Below, in pieces: positions 9,121 to 54,718 of a DNA stretch of 64,000 nt. The notes below the pieces were generated by a model that was not told where the DNA came from, did no database searches, and saw nothing but the letters and a program-made list of their open reading frames with translations. This stretch comes from an uncultured Bacteroides sp. Lineage in GTDB: Bacteria; Bacillota; Clostridia; Christensenellales; CAG-917. The stretch is from positions 4,461 through 68,460 of the forward strand of contig CAZXUW010000001.1 of the NCBI GenBank assembly GCA_964644355.1, written 5' to 3'. The position numbers were made by a program, and so were the translations under genes. Within the stretch, counting starts at the first letter, position 1, and every line of letters starts with the position of its first letter.

Positions 9121-9152
9121 CGCCTTTCCAAATACGGAAAGGCGTTTTTTTT
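9121..9152. terminator. Bidirectional rho-independent terminator (LRR gene on +, asd-dapA on -)
   Basis: CGCCTTTCC (9121-9129), loop AAATAC, GGAAAGGCG (9136-9144). T8 lies downstream and an A-run (9114-9119) lies upstream. Confidence 0.8.
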
Positions 9153-9176
9153 ATCATTGTGTCGGTCGGTACAATG

Positions 9177-9233
9177 ATAATGAATAATTGCGGGTGGGGT
9201 ACTGCCTACACCCGAACGCACACTCGTTCATTG
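9177..9233 (+). repeat. Copy A of the stop-codon-anchored intergenic repeat family
   Basis: ATAATGAATAATTG-CGGGTGGGGTACTGCCTACACCCGAACGCACACTCGTTCATTG aligns with copies at 14817-14874 (+) and 54661-54718 (-). Internal stems are CGGGTG/CACCCG and GAACG/CGTTC. Confidence 0.6.
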
Positions 9234-9251
9234 TTTATTTGAAAACACTTC

Positions 9252-12497: not shown

Positions 12498-14212
12498 TGG
12501 CACAAGTTTTGGGTTTCAACCTATCAAAAGAGGATTATTTGAACCTTGCCAAAGAGGCTTTTTCACAAGATCAGATCGAAAAGGGAATTGCCAATTTGAA
12601 AAAGGCTTTGACAAGCGATGCTACTTTCACAGATGCATCGCTTGCACTTTCTAATGCCTATGCGTCTTTGGGAGCGTGGGAGATGGCAAATCAAGTGCTG
12701 TTCGATGCTCTTGCCACTCATCCCTGCGAGAAGGATAGAAATGATATTTTCTATCAGCTGGCAATGAATTTTTTGGACTTGAAACTTGTTGACACTGCAG
12801 AATATTATTTGAGAGATATTGCCGATGCGTTCGGCTTGGAAATCCCCGACAATTTGGACGAGATTGTGGACGACTCTCAACATGGGAGCGGTTTTAAGGT
12901 GGTGTATCCGCACGGTGACGATTATTATGAAAAGATTGTCGCAAACGGATACAAACTTTTGCATGAGCATCGTTTTGACGAGCTTGTCGCACTCATGGAC
13001 GAGGTGGATCCCAAGTCAAAACTGAAAAATACCGCCAATCATCTTGTGCTTGTTGCACTCATGATGAAAAACGATATTGACAGCGTGATTGCAAATGCAC
13101 AAAAAATGCTTGCACAAGACAAGGACAATTTGTCTGTGAAATGCACGCTTGCAACCGCATATTTGATGGAAGAAAAAAGCACGGAAGCATATGCGGTGAT
13201 TGATGAAATCCTCAGCAAAGATTACACGGATATGAGTGATGTGCTGATGATATTGCCCATTTTGGTGAATCTTGAGATGCATGCGGAAGTGGTTAAATAC
13301 ACACGCCTGGTTCTTGCAACTTTGGATATTCAACCTTGCACGCTGTTGTGGCTATCGCAAGCACTATACAACTTGGGACAGAAGGACGAGGCTCGCAGAA
13401 CAATGGTGAAGGCTCGCACGATATTTGCGGATAGTTCGCCTGCACAATACTATCTTGACTTATACGCTCAAAACCCCGAAAAAGTGGACTATTCTTTGGA
13501 GTTGCCATATTCCGAAAAGATGACAAGATACAAGAAATTGGAGACGTTTTTGAAGATGTCTCCGGTGGGGATTCAGCACGTTGTGGACGACAAAGACGAT
13601 GAGTGCGAAAAGATGCGTGAGTTGCTCAACTGGGCTTTTATCGGCAACGGAGAGAAACTTAAACTGCTGATTGCGGAAAATTTGTCAAAAGTTACATCCG
13701 CTTGGGTTGATAAATTTGTGAGAAAAAAACTTGTGTCGGTGGATCTATCGTTTGATCTTATGTCACGGCTTATGTTTTGTCTTGTCAAGGACAATTGCTT
13801 CAAGCTTTGCTTTGACGTGGTGGCACAGGACAGATTTAAGAGCATTGAGATAACTTTCCCCGATGCGTTCTACAAGATGCCACTATCTTTGCACGGTGCG
13901 ATTGCTTATTGCTATGCGGACATCGTGTTCACCGACGAGGAACCGAATGAGTATCTTGCAAGACTCACAAGCATAATCAACGGCATGGTGAGCCTTGATG
14001 AGAACGGCAAGCTTAAATATGCAAAACCTCAATACAAGAGGTTGTCAACACTCAGAAGCACTCACACGTTGATTGGAGTGTTGCTCTGCAAGGTGTATGA
14101 GGACGAGGACGAAAATATGAAGGAGATCACAGTCAGACGATATGAGCTGAATGAGAGAACTTTCAATAAATATTATGATTTGATTTTTGGAGACGACGAT
14201 GGACGAGAGTAA
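12497..14212 (+). CDS. TPR-like helical-repeat protein (unknown function)
   Basis: 571 aa. The N-terminal half has TPR-like A/L/Y periodicity (..ALSNAYASLGAWEMANQVLFDAL.., ..LSQALYNLGQKDEARRTM..). It is translationally coupled on both sides. Confidence 0.65.
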   Translation: MAQVLGFNLSKEDYLNLAKEAFSQDQIEKGIANLKKALTSDATFTDASLALSNAYASLGAWEMANQVLFDALATHPCEKDRNDIFYQLAMNFLDLKLVDTAEYYLRDIADAFGLEIPDNLDEIVDDSQHGSGFKVVYPHGDDYYEKIVANGYKLLHEHRFDELVALMDEVDPKSKLKNTANHLVLVALMMKNDIDSVIANAQKMLAQDKDNLSVKCTLATAYLMEEKSTEAYAVIDEILSKDYTDMSDVLMILPILVNLEMHAEVVKYTRLVLATLDIQPCTLLWLSQALYNLGQKDEARRTMVKARTIFADSSPAQYYLDLYAQNPEKVDYSLELPYSEKMTRYKKLETFLKMSPVGIQHVVDDKDDECEKMRELLNWAFIGNGEKLKLLIAENLSKVTSAWVDKFVRKKLVSVDLSFDLMSRLMFCLVKDNCFKLCFDVVAQDRFKSIEITFPDAFYKMPLSLHGAIAYCYADIVFTDEEPNEYLARLTSIINGMVSLDENGKLKYAKPQYKRLSTLRSTHTLIGVLLCKVYEDEDENMKEITVRRYELNERTFNKYYDLIFGDDDGRE

Positions 14213-14816
14213 ATCAAAAGACGAGATGCTTGGCAAACTCAACACAATGTTGGACGAAAGTCTTTCTTACGCAACAAGGCTTGATGCTTATGAATATTTG
14301 CTTGAGGACTGCGAGCCGATTGTTGAAAATATGGTTGAAAAGATTTATGCCCTTGAGGGCGAAACGGGCAAAATGCTCATGGAAGTGCTTGCTCAATACA
14401 AGGGCAACAAAGCCATTTTCATGGGGCTTGTCAGCTATCTGTACAAGGGAGAGGACGTTGCTCTTTTTGCAAGGCTTATCGGCTCATACGGTGATGAGCA
14501 GGGCATAGAGGTCATCAAAACTTTCTGCGAAAGCTATGAGCCTAATTACAATGAGTATATGGAGCTTCGCAACGCCGTTGAAGAATTGGGCGGTGATTTT
14601 GATTTGAAGCAAGATTTTTCAGACGATCCGTTTTATCGTTTCCTGAAAGGTCTTGACGAGGAAGATGAGGATAGCAGAAGATCTCCGTTTGAAGATTATT
14701 TCAACTCCTCCAACGAGCACCATCACCACCATCACGATGATGACGACGATTGTGACTGTTGTGACCATGACGATTGTGACGATGATGATTGTGATTGTTG
14801 CGACGACGAAGATTAA
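14199..14816 (+). CDS. Acidic helical protein ending in a His6 + Asp/Cys-only tail (putative metal-binding)
   Basis: ATG 14199 lies 7 nt after GGAG and overlaps the upstream gene's last 14 nt. The C-terminus is ..NSSNEHHHHHHDDDDDCDCCDHDDCDDDDCDCCDDED. Confidence 0.7.
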   Translation: MDESKSKDEMLGKLNTMLDESLSYATRLDAYEYLLEDCEPIVENMVEKIYALEGETGKMLMEVLAQYKGNKAIFMGLVSYLYKGEDVALFARLIGSYGDEQGIEVIKTFCESYEPNYNEYMELRNAVEELGGDFDLKQDFSDDPFYRFLKGLDEEDEDSRRSPFEDYFNSSNEHHHHHHDDDDDCDCCDHDDCDDDDCDCCDDED

Positions 14817-14874
14817 TTAATGAATAATGAATAATTGGGGGGCTCTGCCCACACACGAACGCTCACTTATTCGA
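14817..14874 (+). repeat. Copy B of the stop-codon-anchored intergenic repeat family
   Basis: TTAATGAATAATGAATAATTGGGGGGCTCTGCCCACACACGAACGCTCACTTATTCGA starts directly after the TAA at 14814-16. It fills almost the entire 60-nt gap to the convergent gene's stop at 14877. Confidence 0.65.
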
Positions 14875-14876
14875 TT

Positions 14877-15887
14877 TTATACGCAACCTAGATTGGCACG
14901 CTTTGCGTGCTTTTCTTTTGCCGTTTTTATTATGTAAATTGCAAGACGCACAATTACTATTGCCGTCAACACAATTCCGCAGACACTGTTGAAAGGGTAG
15001 AGATTGTCAACGATATTGTCAAAGCCAAAGAAGCTCAACGGATATGCTATGAGCAAGCAAAAGAACACCACAAAAGACTTGTGATTTTCATCCGCAACAA
15101 ATTGTAAACGCTTTGTGTGGCGGGCAAAATCAATCACGCTGTCACTCACGATTTTCAGCGAGGATACGAGGGTTGTGAAGATTGCTCCGGCAATCAAAAC
15201 ACCAGAGAAAAATTTTAGGTGAAGTTGTTCAGAAATTGCCAAAACGGGCATTAAACTGCCGTTTGTGTCAGATAAAACTACCGTTTGGAGCATAAACAGC
15301 ATTGCAAACATAAATATGCAGATAATGATGCAAGATGCAAATATTTGTTTGAAGGTGAGCTGTTCGCCCTCTTTGGATATCACCACCCCACCGAGCAAAA
15401 CGTCCAATCCGCTATACAGAATCGGCTTTGAGAGCGAGAAGGGGAGCGTGTAGGACGGTGTGTCAAGTCTTGCAAAAATCAAAGCTATTGACAGCACTAT
15501 CAGCGGTACGATTATGACGTTGAGAATGCGTATTTTTTCTATGCCCAGCACAACTATCGCACCGCCAAGAATTGTCATAGTAAGTCCAAAGACAAGCGGG
15601 ATCCCGCTCATCGATTGCATGATATAATCACCGCCTGCAAGCATGGAGCATAAAGATATGCTTGCGGATAGAAAGATAAAGAAGCCAACTATTCTGCCTT
15701 TGGGCATAAGTCCCAACTTGCCGGCTATCAAGAATAGTGCACACAGCAAGGACATAAACACGGATGAGATTGCCACGTTGAGAGGAGATGCCTCTCCAAA
15801 GTAAAGTGCGATTTCTCGCCCCGACGAGAAGCCTGCTCCTATTGCCGTACCGATGTATAATGCGGATGTTTTGAGAGATTTTTTCAC
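14877..15887 (-). CDS. YkvI-family membrane protein (putative transporter)
   Basis: 336 aa with a GTG start. YIGTAIGAGFSSGREI matches the YkvI-family GAGFASGQE signature, and there are about 10 hydrophobic spans. Confidence 0.7.
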   Translation of the reverse strand: MKKSLKTSALYIGTAIGAGFSSGREIALYFGEASPLNVAISSVFMSLLCALFLIAGKLGLMPKGRIVGFFIFLSASISLCSMLAGGDYIMQSMSGIPLVFGLTMTILGGAIVVLGIEKIRILNVIIVPLIVLSIALIFARLDTPSYTLPFSLSKPILYSGLDVLLGGVVISKEGEQLTFKQIFASCIIICIFMFAMLFMLQTVVLSDTNGSLMPVLAISEQLHLKFFSGVLIAGAIFTTLVSSLKIVSDSVIDFARHTKRLQFVADENHKSFVVFFCLLIAYPLSFFGFDNIVDNLYPFNSVCGIVLTAIVIVRLAIYIIKTAKEKHAKRANLGCV

Positions 15888-17411: not shown

Positions 17412-17600
17412 AAAAAAATCTCCGTTTTTTTGCGGAGAAGGACAAAATGCAAAAATCTTGCGACTTTTGCTTGCTACTCCTTCCCAGTCTGACTTTACAG
17501 GCGGTTGCGGAATCTCACCGCATCGGCTGTTGGGGCTGTTGGACTTGTCCGCTCTAGGCGGCATTACCACCGGTTGGGATACACCCACCCAAAGAATAGA
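17412..17600 (-). promoter_or_regulatory. FMN riboswitch (RFN element) with terminator/SD-sequestering expression platform
   Basis: The minus-strand RNA reads CUUUGGGUGGGUGUAUCCCAACCGGUGGUAAU..AGAGCGGACAAGUCC..GCGGUGAGAUUCCGCAACCGCCUGUAAAGUCAGACUGGGAAGGAG. This parallels the RFN consensus (CUUCGGGGCAGGGUGAAAUUCCCGACCGGCGGUA..GGUG.AUUC..AACCGACAGU.AAGUCUGGAUGGGAGAAGGA). Terminator UCUCCG-CAAAAAAA-CGGAGA-U7 (17412-17438) contains the GGAGA SD. Confidence 0.85.
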
Positions 17601-17617
17601 TATTGTTTGATGCGAAG

Positions 17618-31739: not shown

Positions 31740-32183
31740 ATGAAAGTTGCAGTCGGTTGCGATCATGGTGGATATGTTTTGAAAGATGCCGTTGTATCTA
31801 CACTCAAAGATTTGGGTGCAGAGGTGGTGGATTTTGGGTGCTTTGGCACGGAGTCTGTGGATTATCCCAAGTTTGGCTATGCGGTGGCAAATGCCGTTGC
31901 AAGCGGACAGTGCGACACGGGTGTTGTGATGTGTGGCACGGGTATAGGCATTTCGATTGTGGCAAACAAGGTCAAGGGCATACGTTGCGGACTTTGCACC
32001 AATGCGTTTATGGCGGAGATGACCAAACGTCACAACAATGCCAACGTTATTGCTCTTGGTGGCAGGGTTGTCACGCCAGACGAGGCAAAAGACATTGTCA
32101 AAGCTTGGTACACTGCAGATTTTGAGGGTGGTAGACACCAAAATAGACTGGATATGATAAAAGAGATAGAAAAGAACAATTGA
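31740..32183 (+). CDS. rpiB: Ribose-5-phosphate isomerase B
   Basis: 147 aa. MKVAVGCDHGGYVLK.., CGTGIGISIVANKVKGIR, and ..NNANVIALGGRV are typical RpiB/LacAB motifs. Confidence 0.92.
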   Translation: MKVAVGCDHGGYVLKDAVVSTLKDLGAEVVDFGCFGTESVDYPKFGYAVANAVASGQCDTGVVMCGTGIGISIVANKVKGIRCGLCTNAFMAEMTKRHNNANVIALGGRVVTPDEAKDIVKAWYTADFEGGRHQNRLDMIKEIEKNN

Positions 32184-32209
32184 ATGCAAAGGATTGTGCG
32201 GAGATAGGT

Positions 32210-33487
32210 ATGAAGGATTTGTTTGTGTCATATTGCAATGACGATATAATCAAGGTGAAAAGCGTTGTGAGAGCACTGAAGTTTTATGGTGCGGAATGTT
32301 GGTTTCAGGACAGCGACAGCAATCAAGAGTTTCCAGAAGCCATCATAAAAGGCTTTGAAGAATCGTCAAATTTTGTGGTGTTTCTTTCCGACAGTAGCAT
32401 CAAATCAATGTACGTGCTCAACGAGATCAAGATTGCCATAAGTAAGCACCAAAAGGAAAGCAGTTTTCACATCGTGCCGGTGATTATCGGTGATTGCGAT
32501 ATAGATTCGTATGATTTTATGAAAATCAACGTGATGATAGGAAGCTTCAATTTCTTGTTTGAAAAAAAGTTTGAGAATGAGTACGATTTGGCTTTGAAAA
32601 TTTTGGATCAAGCAAATATTGAAAACAATATCACCGATAGCGTCAACAGCATTTATGACGGTGCAACGGATATTGAAAAAGAGAGACTTGCATCCCAAAA
32701 TAGATTTTTGAACCGCATTGTCAAGGGATATTTTGACGAGATATTTGACAATTTGCACTCACCATGCGTGTTGGACGTCGGTTGCTCTGACGGCAGTAAC
32801 GTTGTCAACAGGTTGTCGGACAGAGATTATTCTCAACTTGTAGGCATTGACAACAATGCGATTGATTTGCAAAGTGCTATTGACAATTTGCAGGACGACA
32901 AACACCACTTTTTCAACGTGGATATCACCGCCGATGATCTCGAGGAGCAATTGCAAAGCATTTTGCAGGAAACAGGCATAAAGCAGTTTGATCTTATCCA
33001 GTTTTCCGCAGTGCTCATGCACACCAAAAATCCCGAGCAAATACTTGCCACTATGCGTAAATTTTTGTCCAAAGGAGGATATATTTTCATCCAAGAGGAG
33101 GATGACGGCGTAAATTTGGCATACCCCAATTCCGACTTCTTTGACAGCTGTTTTTACCTTTATATGCACTCCAAAGAGTCCGGAGACAGACATATGGCAA
33201 GAAAGATCCCTTCCTTGCTTAAAAACAGCGGATATGGTGACGTGTCCTTGAAGTCAACAGCAATTTCATCGATTGATTTTGGCGGAGAGGAGAAGGAAAC
33301 ACTGTGGGATATGTATTTCAATCCGACCTATTGGAATGCATCCGAGGCAAAATTCTTTGATAATATCAAAGCAGTGGATGCGTTGGAAAACGCCAAGAGA
33401 ATGCACGACGACAAAAAGAGTGCCTATATGCGTGACGAGATATTCGTTATGTTGGGAGTGTTTTTCTTCACGGCAAGAAATCTGTAA
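32210..33487 (+). CDS. TIR-domain / class I SAM-dependent methyltransferase fusion protein
   Basis: ATG 32210 lies 7 nt after GGAG (alternative TTG at 32180). The N-terminus looks like TIR_2: DLFVSYCNDD, GAECWFQDSD, SSNFVVFLSDSSIKSMYVLNEIKIA, HIVPVIIGD. The C-terminus carries MTase motifs: VLDVGCSDG (I), LVGIDNN, FDLIQFSAVLMH, KGGYIFIQEED. Confidence 0.75.
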   Translation: MKDLFVSYCNDDIIKVKSVVRALKFYGAECWFQDSDSNQEFPEAIIKGFEESSNFVVFLSDSSIKSMYVLNEIKIAISKHQKESSFHIVPVIIGDCDIDSYDFMKINVMIGSFNFLFEKKFENEYDLALKILDQANIENNITDSVNSIYDGATDIEKERLASQNRFLNRIVKGYFDEIFDNLHSPCVLDVGCSDGSNVVNRLSDRDYSQLVGIDNNAIDLQSAIDNLQDDKHHFFNVDITADDLEEQLQSILQETGIKQFDLIQFSAVLMHTKNPEQILATMRKFLSKGGYIFIQEEDDGVNLAYPNSDFFDSCFYLYMHSKESGDRHMARKIPSLLKNSGYGDVSLKSTAISSIDFGGEEKETLWDMYFNPTYWNASEAKFFDNIKAVDALENAKRMHDDKKSAYMRDEIFVMLGVFFFTARNL

Positions 33488-34990: not shown

Positions 34991-35340
34991 TAATTATTAA
35001 CGGAATGTGCATATTCAAGGCGTGGAGTCGCAAGGCAACGACCGTAGCGAACGCCAAGCTTGACGATAAGTACGAGCGACTGTGTCGTCCATTGGCCACT
35101 GCTTGGCACACAAAGCGAAGTGGCACAGCTTTCAGCTGTTTATATTGCAGAACGCACGTTCACCGCTCGCTGTTCGTTCTAGCAACGAGCTAGCAATCGC
35201 TACCACAGGTCGATTGCGTCGGTGTATCCCCATGCAAAGCACTTGCCGCGGGTTCCCTTTTAAGGGGGAACGGCAATAGGGGAAACACCTGAGGAAGGGC
35301 GATTTAGAGAATTAAGCGTGAAACATTAAAAAATATGGAT
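34991..35340 (+). other. GC-rich, hairpin-dense non-coding insert between the ATPase and permease genes (candidate structured RNA or repeat element)
   Basis: No credible ORF is present. Nested stems visible by eye:
- GGCGT 35019-23 / ACGCC 35051-55
- GACGA 35062-66 / TCGTC 35085-89
- GCCACT 35095-100 / AGTGGC 35119-24
- ACAGCT-TTC-AGCTGT 35125-39
- AGAACG 35149-54 / CGTTCT 35175-80
- CTAGC-AACGA-GCTAG 35179-93
- GCAATCG 35193-99 / CGATTGC 35211-17
- GGTGTATCCCC 35221-31 / GGGGAAACACC 35279-89 (one mismatch). Confidence 0.5.
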
Positions 35341-35366
35341 ACGCTTGGAATAGAATATTAAATATT

Positions 35367-53473: not shown

Positions 53474-53514
53474 GGCTCCGCCTTGTGCAATTATTCAGTA
53501 TTAACTATTTATTA
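53474..53514 (-). repeat. Degenerate copy (Z) of the stop-anchored repeat, starting at the ispDF stop codon
   Basis: The minus strand reads GAT-TAA-TAAATAGTTAATACTGAATAATTG-CACAAGGCGGAGCC. It shares GATTAAT.. and the exact 9-mer GAATAATTG with copies A and B, followed by a small GC hairpin (GGC-GGA-GCC). Confidence 0.4.
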
Positions 53515-54642: not shown

Positions 54643-54660
54643 AATCAAATAGTGGGATTT

Positions 54661-54718
54661 CGAATAAGGGTGTGTTCGGGTGTGGGTGTCCCGCCCTCAA
54701 ATATTCATTATTCATTAA
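54661..54718 (-). repeat. Copy C of the stop-codon-anchored repeat, intercistronic between rqcP and ispDF
   Basis: The minus strand reads TTAATGAATAATGAATATTTGAGGGCGGGACACCCACACCCGAACACACCCTTATTCGA. Its first 12 nt (ATT AAT GAA TAA) encode the last three residues and the stop of rqcP. Confidence 0.65.

Follow-up and report, generated by a model that had tools for sequence, protein, structure and literature searches.

Systems of the REP/REPIN-RAYT type combine a GT[AG]G tetranucleotide at the 5' foot of a palindrome, a single-copy Y1 (RAYT) gene flanked by repeats and tens to hundreds of copies per genome. Their REP classes vary between related strains that have orthologous RAYTs (Bertels and Rainey 2011, PMC3116915; Nunvar et al. 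2013, PMC3686654). In Beggiatoaceae, Cyanobacteria and Bacteroidetes, direct repeats of the heptamer TAACTGA run across the stop codon of the upstream gene and stand in front of genes without a Shine-Dalgarno sequence (MacGregor 2015, PMC4679880). Gut-1, with the consensus CAAUGAAAU-hairpin-GUGAAAU-hairpin-GUGAAAU-hairpin-UGAAAUUGCUG, was reported as a likely RNA with covariation, found in human-gut metagenomes only and with neither organism nor function assigned (Weinberg et al. 2010, PMC2864571). Here we analyse a family of repeats of about 60 nt in a 64,000-nucleotide stretch of contig CAZXUW010000001.1 (the window), from an uncultured member of the Clostridia with a GC content of about 44%. 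The repeat fills spacers where genes end. A given genome holds a single type of content throughout, while the corresponding sites of sister species hold a different one. The sister versions form hairpin arrays akin to Gut-1, a kinship that the preliminary description of this DNA, made from its sequence alone, had missed.

Structure of the repeat in the window

Copies A, B and C, put forward in the preliminary description, were all recovered (Table 1). The AT-block pattern ATGAATAATGAATAWTTG, with up to three mismatches, matched four times in the window against 0.28 expected, a count that none of 100 shuffles reached, and the GC-rich block CCYACACMCGAACRC is found three times in all, once each in A, B and C, where it is colinear with the AT block. 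These counts confirm a true repeat family. In global alignments the three copies are about 75-80% identical in pairs over about 60 nt. Because this identity includes the non-AT half, low complexity is not the cause of the likeness; the concern that the copies might be alignable only through AT-richness is answered by the colinear alignment of their GC-rich halves. Since the AT block is short and rich in stops and is all that remnant Z retains, a chance likeness of AT-rich sequence beside stop codons had to be considered. For A, B and C this explanation is refuted by the GC-rich half, by the shuffles and by the presence of the same composite in other genomes. The density amounts to 3-4 copies per 64 kb, and a window-wide repeat search revealed no additional family. 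The earlier view that the repeat matches no class that could be named holds for curated RNA families: in Rfam, the whole window gave a single match at gathering scores, an FMN riboswitch, and a search around copy B at E<=10 gave nothing of relevance. A tRNA/tmRNA search found none, and a literature text search for the heptad dimer string gave no match.

The general plan is a pair of AT-rich inverted arms of TGAATAA heptads around a GC hairpin, which has ATTGCGGG at its start and GAAC behind it. We aligned eight distinct members, namely copy C, copies A and B each in the versions of two strains, and three members from other genomes. The aligned order is TGAATAA heptads, TTG, a bulged GC helix GGGYGGG-loop-CCCRC(A)CCC, GAAC (identical in seven of the eight) and a 3' arm TTATTC, which pairs with the GAATAA of the heptads. 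The main structure consists of the GC helix in the 5' half and this outer GAATAA/TTATTC helix. Paired cells make up 91.7% of the GC helix, against about 40-45% in slid-partner controls, and one pair is exchanged, from C-G to U-A, in three sequences. Covariation measures did not rise above column shuffles in this alignment, and no strand-consistent covariation was detected. The small CGAA..TTCG hairpin to which the preliminary description had drawn attention in the 3' half is not significant (single-copy fold z of -0.5 to -1.5) and is not the main structure. The AT block does place stops in all three frames, as had been noted, since TGAATAATGAATAA carries them in every frame. The GC hairpin reads GGGTGGGG-TACTG-CCTACACCC in copy A, and GGGCGGG-ACA-CCCACACCC, with one C.A mismatch, in copy C.

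The relation of the copies to stop codons is less regular than first described. Anchoring holds for B, which begins directly behind a TAA, and for C, where the stop of an S4-domain gene lies inside the AT block, but not for A, which stands about 55 nt beyond the stop, past a canonical bidirectional terminator, and 18 nt before the dapA stop. Likewise, each copy does have the orientation of its upstream gene, but this is trivially true for A and B because both stand between convergent genes, and it is informative only for C and Z. The rule fails outside the window because L004 and L005, members of the family in two other metagenome-assembled genomes (MAGs), are antisense to both neighbours. The supposed degenerate fourth copy, Z, shares only TTAAT..TGAATAATTGC with the others (nhmmer E 0.07-0.15) and is a remnant rather than a copy.

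Repeat content in sister species, other genomes and strains

Orthologous loci of strains and relatives were fetched by means of the window proteins. L001-3 and L015-18 are strains of the window species, at 99.1-99.9% nucleotide identity, while L019 and L042 are sister-species loci, at 77-85% nucleotide identity to the window. In the comparison of orthologous 3' ends that the preliminary description had called for, full copies were confined to strains at 99-100% identity, while sister species have other repeat content in the same spacers. No full copy was found by nhmmer in relatives with 73-89% ispDF protein identity; L019, L042 and L043, added later, were read directly and scanned for heptad and linker motifs. 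In all fetched loci, these three included, the TGAATAA type occurs only in the window species and the GTGATAT/ATGATATC type only in sister species. The sister spacers start on the same stop codons with arrays of GUGAUAU/AUGAUAUC linkers plus hairpins (Table 1). The site of copy B, for example, is occupied by a copy in strains L015-L018 but by a solo linker in L019 and by content like Gut-1 in L042.

The array of L012, a relative with 73% ispDF identity, scores 51.9 bits against Gut-1 (RF01706), for which the gathering score is 50, and that of L010 (89%) scores 42.6 bits. The sister arrays are thus full or near matches to Gut-1, at stop codons that carry copies in the window. The two kinds of element also share 7-nt AU-rich, UGA-containing linkers (GUGAAAU or GUGAUAU in Gut-1, UGAAUAA in the window) and, as judged by eye, appear to have a ...UGAAAUUGC / UGAAUAAUUGC junction in common. 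In contrast, window copies consist of one long bulged GC hairpin with adjacent linkers, whereas Gut-1 has three or more short tandem hairpins and is described as a free-standing non-coding RNA; copy A, with one extra hairpin upstream, still falls short of the three-hairpin plan. As no Gut-1 score was obtained in the whole window at gathering scores, or around copy B at E<=10, the window copies are not Gut-1 members. UUCG/GNRA tetraloops seemed at first to abound in the sister arrays, but closer inspection of the loops did not bear this out.

Window copies and sister arrays appear to be built on a common frame. Both begin their core with ATTGCGG. The AATGAATAA...TTATTCA arms enclose the array in one sister species and partly in a second, and in L008 the array is closed by 10-bp inverted arms, CAATGAATAA/TTATTCATTG, of which the 5' arm is formed by the S4 codons N-E-stop. 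The L012 array ends in GATTGCGGAATATTTGA-AAA-CTTATTCA (GAATATTTGA-AAA-), and copy C reads GAATATTTGA-(28-nt GC insert)-CTTATTCGA. The likeness of frame and junction (UGAAAUUGC end; AATGAATAA/TTATTCA arms) was read by eye. AATGAATAA, encoding N-E-stop at the S4 gene, also occurs in a sister species that lacks this copy. At this stop it is probably part of the repeat frame in both lineages and dates from their common ancestor, because the more distant L012 ends S4 differently. The frame would comprise a 5' arm of TGAATAA heptads (AATGAATAA...), a core from ATTGCGG and a 3' arm ...TTATTC(A/G); its content would be one bulged GC hairpin plus GAAC in the window species, and GUGAUAU/AUGAUAUC linker-hairpin arrays, the Gut-1 motif, in sister species. 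Gut-1, an orphan Rfam family since 2010 known as 'human gut only', hereby gains a genomic context, in spacers that start on stop codons in uncultured Clostridia, together with a probable modular frame and a variant in a sister species.

Table 1. Position of the repeat copies and associated features in the window, and content of the corresponding sites in sister species.
Feature	Locus	Position	Strand	Remarks
Bidirectional intrinsic terminator	window	9121..9152	.	directly upstream of copy A
Additional hairpin ATCATTGT-GTCGGTCGGT-ACAATGAT	window	9153..9178	+	directly 5' of copy A
Copy A	window	9171..9235	+	between bidirectional terminator of the 1595-aa leucine-rich repeat (LRR) gene and the stop (9252) of convergent dapA
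Copy B	window	14817..14876	+	occupies the entire 60-nt gap from the TAA of the 205-aa gene (ends 14816) to the stop (14877-14879) of the convergent 336-aa membrane-protein gene
Two TGAATAA heptads of B	window	14821..14834	+	5' arm/linker; stops in three frames; one heptad in L018
GC-rich hairpin of B	window	14838..14860	+	GGGGGC-TCT-GCCCACACAC and conserved GAAC
3' arm of B	window	14867..14874	+	TTATTCGA, complementary to heptad GAATAA
Canonical intrinsic terminator of the 205-aa gene	window	14895..14919	+	20 nt past copy B, within the 3' end of the convergent gene; kept in sister species
Remnant Z	window	53474..53514	-	directly after the ispDF stop; retains TTAAT..TGAATAATTGC only
Copy C	window	54660..54718	-	in the spacer (65 nt) from the S4-domain gene to ispDF; its 5' arm consists of the S4 codons N-E-stop (AATGAATAA)
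S4 stop	L008			...ATC AAT GAA TAA (AATGAATAA), then TGATATC-hairpin units (ATGATATC array)
ispDF stop	L010			TGA inside AAATGATATC, first linker of a Gut-1-like array
205-aa gene stop	L042			GAG TGA TAT (GUGAUAU), hairpin TGCACGCAAGCGTGCA, GTTGCGGAGAATTT... (GTTGCGGAG)
205-aa gene stop	L019			solo linker GAATGATATCCC (AATGATATC)
Site of copy A	L042			plainly empty

We scanned a collection holding one genome for each of 185,579 species with a strict two-block pattern and obtained two matches, in a Clostridia MAG from sheep rectum and in an Acutalibacteraceae MAG (L004 and L005). These have in common an element of about 150 nt with non-alignable flanks, in which long symmetric heptad arms, of up to five heptads in L004, surround an intact core TGGGCGGGACACCCGCACCCGAAC. 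The element follows mfd in L004 and a MatE gene in L005, and a search of the L004 element against Rfam at E<=10 gave only noise. A clean member was also found on a viral contig (L021), between two co-directional genes and after a terminator-like hairpin; the neighbouring genes look like phage structural genes and have no Pfam match. A scan of viral sequences with the core pattern gave no match, and with GAATAATTGNGGGYGGG it gave 19, nearly all of them chance occurrences in coding DNA or ordinary terminators. On two viral contigs, L022 (5270-5400, -) and L023 (4815-4960, +), the terminase large-subunit gene ends at the first TAG of a long array of CAGTTAG/TCAGTTA heptamers, whose reverse complement is TAACTGA. 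These arrays grade into three units of TGAATAG/TGAATAA followed by TTG and a GTCGC-TTCG-GCGAC hairpin, and the terminase open reading frame (ORF) holds a stretch SYQLSVIS translated from the heptamers.

The fuller copies also fold more stably: the fold z-score is -3.8 for L004, -3.25 for A together with the hairpin upstream of it, -2.4 for L021 and -2.3 for the B copy of L018, whereas copies B and C of the window taken alone (-1.06 and -0.46) are not clearly better than shuffles. Terminal inverted repeats are present as GAATAA/TTATTC in B and C and as ACAATGA/TCATTGT in A; they reach 13-16 bp in L004 and 10 bp in L008.

Strains of the window species carry the copies with marked local variation. 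Copy B of L018 has one heptad instead of two and a 3-nt indel; it reads TTGCGGGTGGGC where the window has TTGGGGGGC and retains a fuller hairpin, CGGGTGGGC-TCT-GCCCACACAC. Between the shared flanks of the ATCATTGT/ACAATGAT hairpin upstream of copy A, the loop is GTGTCGGTCGGTAC in the window (9161-9170) and its exact reverse complement, GTACCGACCGACAC, in L015 (4963-4972), although the two strains are 99.8% identical. The copies thus change by heptad slippage, small indels and hairpin-loop inversion. A similar switch was noticed in the terminator behind copy B, where the loop TTT (window 14901-14903) is AAA in L042, turning a Lys codon of the convergent gene into Leu. As read from the sequences, both loop switches are palindrome-mediated inversions.

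Origin and possible roles of the repeat

The presence of a different, Gut-1-matching version in the sister spacers points to a fast-turnover system of the REP/MITE (miniature inverted-repeat transposable element) type rather than to a conserved regulatory signal. The reading that we favour, with about even confidence, is that the window holds the species-specific version of a modular, hairpin-forming interspersed intergenic repeat, non-autonomous and REP/MITE-like, whose lineage-specific content occupies long-held sites. Among the three options offered in the preliminary description, a miniature insertion element fits best because full copies are limited to the window species, sister sites differ in content and indels occur within the species; its added idea of an element that targets stop codons is not demonstrated. 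Since the arms and linkers hold TGA/TAA in all frames, they supply or abut the upstream stop, and survival of insertions at gene ends explains the pattern as well as targeting does. Anchoring would then be a by-product, only insertions at the extreme end of a gene surviving, an argument also made for TAACTGA heptamer arrays (PMC4679880), although true targeting may occur. By our proposal, the element would be copied or converted at the DNA level via its hairpin, by an enzyme encoded elsewhere. The GTTC on the reverse strand next to an imperfect bulged palindrome might, by analogy, correspond to the GTAG-plus-palindrome that RAYTs recognise. As it is transcribed within 3'-untranslated regions (UTRs) and in the spacers of operons, the hairpin probably has a secondary effect on mRNA ends as well.

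The repeat shows both likenesses to and differences from described repeats. Like REP/BIME/REPIN-RAYT elements, the repeat is a short, imperfect, dispersed palindrome with a bulged stem in intergenic spacers, often at gene 3' ends; it is a mosaic of conserved and variable modules, its sequence class varies between related lineages, and next to the palindrome stands a conserved tetranucleotide, GTTC when read on the reverse strand, which is analogous and not identical. Unlike them, it has no GT[AG]G, resides in a Firmicutes host and has stop-bearing AT-heptad arms, and no RAYT was seen in the window or the fetched loci. With bacterial MITEs (Correia, RUP, BOX, ERIC; Delihas 2008, PMC2229807) it shares terminal inverted arms, small size, restriction to a lineage and the ability to overlap gene ends and supply stop codons, but it shows no target-site duplication and no parent insertion sequence, and the arms of the window copies measure only 6-10 bp. 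The TAACTGA repeats are likewise tandem heptamers with stops in three frames; here, in contrast, the heptamer is TGAATAA, is present in one or two units in the window and forms the arm of a larger palindrome rather than a free-standing array. Integron attC sites were rejected: CCCGAAC / GTTCGGG departs from RYYYAAC ... GTTRRRY in having C, not R, at position 4, and the second core site is absent. If the spacers are truly rewritten with genome-specific content, the repeat would represent a REP/RAYT-like system in Firmicutes and a tractable case of concerted evolution of dispersed repeats.

Several observations weigh against a mobile or converting repeat. Neither the 64-kb window nor the neighbourhood of L004, L005 and L021 encodes a transposase or recombinase, and the flanks of A, B, C, L004 and L005 contain no direct repeat that would indicate a target-site duplication. 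A clean empty site was not encountered; the A site alone is plainly empty in one relative (L042), and the B, C and Z sites are filled with other repeat content. The sequences are few (about eight distinct), as are the matches to the strict two-block pattern, two among the species genomes and one in the Joint Genome Institute (JGI) metagenomes, the latter in coding sequence and due to chance. Both Rfam and the authors of Gut-1 treat that family as a likely RNA (PMC2864571). Finally, conserved occupancy of the spacers could mean descent in situ under selection, that is, function.

A functional account would be a selected RNA module, in which the AU-rich heptads and the GC hairpin serve as intercistronic or 3'-UTR punctuation in the transcript. 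An endonuclease such as RNase Y would cut the AU linker, the hairpins would shield the new 3' and 5' ends, and the sister Gut-1 arrays would be the multi-hairpin form of the same device. C, Z, L008, L010 and L021 are sense-oriented in operon spacers, and copy B is transcribed, because it lies between a stop codon and a canonical terminator. Occupation of the same spacers across species, retention of the GC helix with one compensatory pair and the classification of Gut-1 as a likely RNA with covariation (PMC2864571) point the same way. However, L004 and L005 are antisense to both neighbours, A lies behind a terminator on its own strand, and covariation does not exceed shuffles. Nor is any strand consistently preserved: A, which belongs mainly to the dapA transcript of the opposite strand, has a G.U on the forward strand, C has its C.A on the transcribed strand, and the strands that wobble or mismatch positions favour are opposite in A and C and in both cases the less transcribed. 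The window copies moreover look degraded beside those of L021, L004 and L018. We regard the module as a possible but doubtful explanation; some role of the repeat in RNA processing or stability is possible.

Termination was considered on both strands. No U-tract follows any copy on the forward strand, as already reported, and the reading as an intrinsic terminator was rejected there since the GC hairpin lacks one; the scan called only a weak 5-bp hairpin in the 3' part of A (9214-9229). Because ordinary intrinsic terminators follow many other window genes, the repeat is not the general terminator of this genome. On the reverse strand, the GC hairpin with its U-rich tail (AAUUAUUCAUUAUUCAUU) might act as a weak terminator for dapA (A), the membrane-protein gene (B), mfd (L004) and the MatE gene (L005), all of which end just upstream of the reverse-strand element, and copy C, the sole window copy in an operon with both neighbours co-directional, has the non-terminating orientation. 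Yet the tail is only about 50% U and interrupted, the consensus scan made no reverse-strand call, the reverse-strand fold z ranges from -0.01 to -2.1, A has a canonical bidirectional terminator 30 nt further on and the arrangement of L021 does not fit. We therefore consider a reverse-strand terminator improbable.

A binding site on DNA is more improbable still. The AT heptads would bind a regulator, a nucleoid protein or a recombination protein, and they do form inverted arms; in copy A they include a Fur-box-like GATAATGA.TAAT, and its GATAATGAATAAT comes near two hexamers of the generally known Fur-box consensus, GATAATGATAATCATTATC. The Fur-like match is confined to this one copy, without a palindromic half, and the best-conserved parts of the repeat are the GC hairpin and GAAC. 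All copies stand at gene 3' ends and not at promoters, which is the wrong location for a Fur box, and this reading was dropped. A promoter, with AATAAT as -10 element followed by a 5' hairpin, would suit L021 and C only; A, B, L004 and L005 do not agree with it, and this reading was rejected as well.

A broader proposal, which we offer as speculation and think rather unlikely, would combine both kinds of role: Gut-1 and the TGAATAA/GC-hairpin element would be lineage versions of a single stop-codon-anchored spacer system, homogenised within each genome and rewritten between species by a dedicated enzyme acting in trans, with modules that serve as intercistronic RNA processing or insulation signals.

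Neighbouring genes and other features

Genes of the window include rpoB and rpoC, an ispDF fusion and surface proteins with BspA-type LRRs and Listeria-Bacteroides repeats; the closest named homologues are labelled 'MAG: Clostridia bacterium'. The 205-aa gene upstream of copy B (14199-14816, +) encodes an acidic protein of unassigned family with a His6 run and an Asp/Cys-rich tail; in close relatives the protein measures anywhere from 189 to 244 aa, and the tails differ in those compared. Behind copy C, ispDF has no recognisable Shine-Dalgarno sequence (window 54643-54660, -, ...AATCCCACTATTTGATTATG), where relatives have sites of the GGAG/AAGGAAG type. In L010 (1272-1340) the methyltransferase ORF as called by the gene finder includes 31 additional codons at its start, which run through the Gut-1-like array; translation probably begins at ATGAAC, as in the window. 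For annotation it matters that the arms create or abut stop codons and erase a Shine-Dalgarno sequence (ispDF), and that gene callers extend ORFs through them (L010). The S4-ispDF spacer of L012 (9760-10000) contains a third kind of short repeat, in which CGCTCGRACAATT recurs five to six times; a part of it, CCCACACACTCGGAC, resembles CCCACACACGAAC of copy B.

The FMN riboswitch (RF00050) lies at 17472-17601 (-) of the window, upstream of the gene for an ECF-type riboflavin transporter, and scores 66.8 bits against a gathering score of 66.2. A conserved, structured-looking unit precedes a MacB/FtsX-like permease gene, over about 375 nt in the window (34991-35366, +) and about 330 nt in L012; it is also present in L010 (1-100). 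In L012 it is tandemly duplicated (14895-15225 and 15222-15550), directly 3' of the Gut-1 arrays, and in L013 the permease spacer, judged from gene coordinates only, is 329 nt shorter and probably holds a single unit. The only Rfam match of this unit is a weak one, to c-di-GMP-I-UAU (20 bits, gathering score 65.9). At 32180-33487 (+), the window encodes a TIR domain fused to an S-adenosylmethionine (SAM)-dependent methyltransferase domain (Pfam TIR_2 and Methyltransf_31), a fusion protein that may be related to defence.

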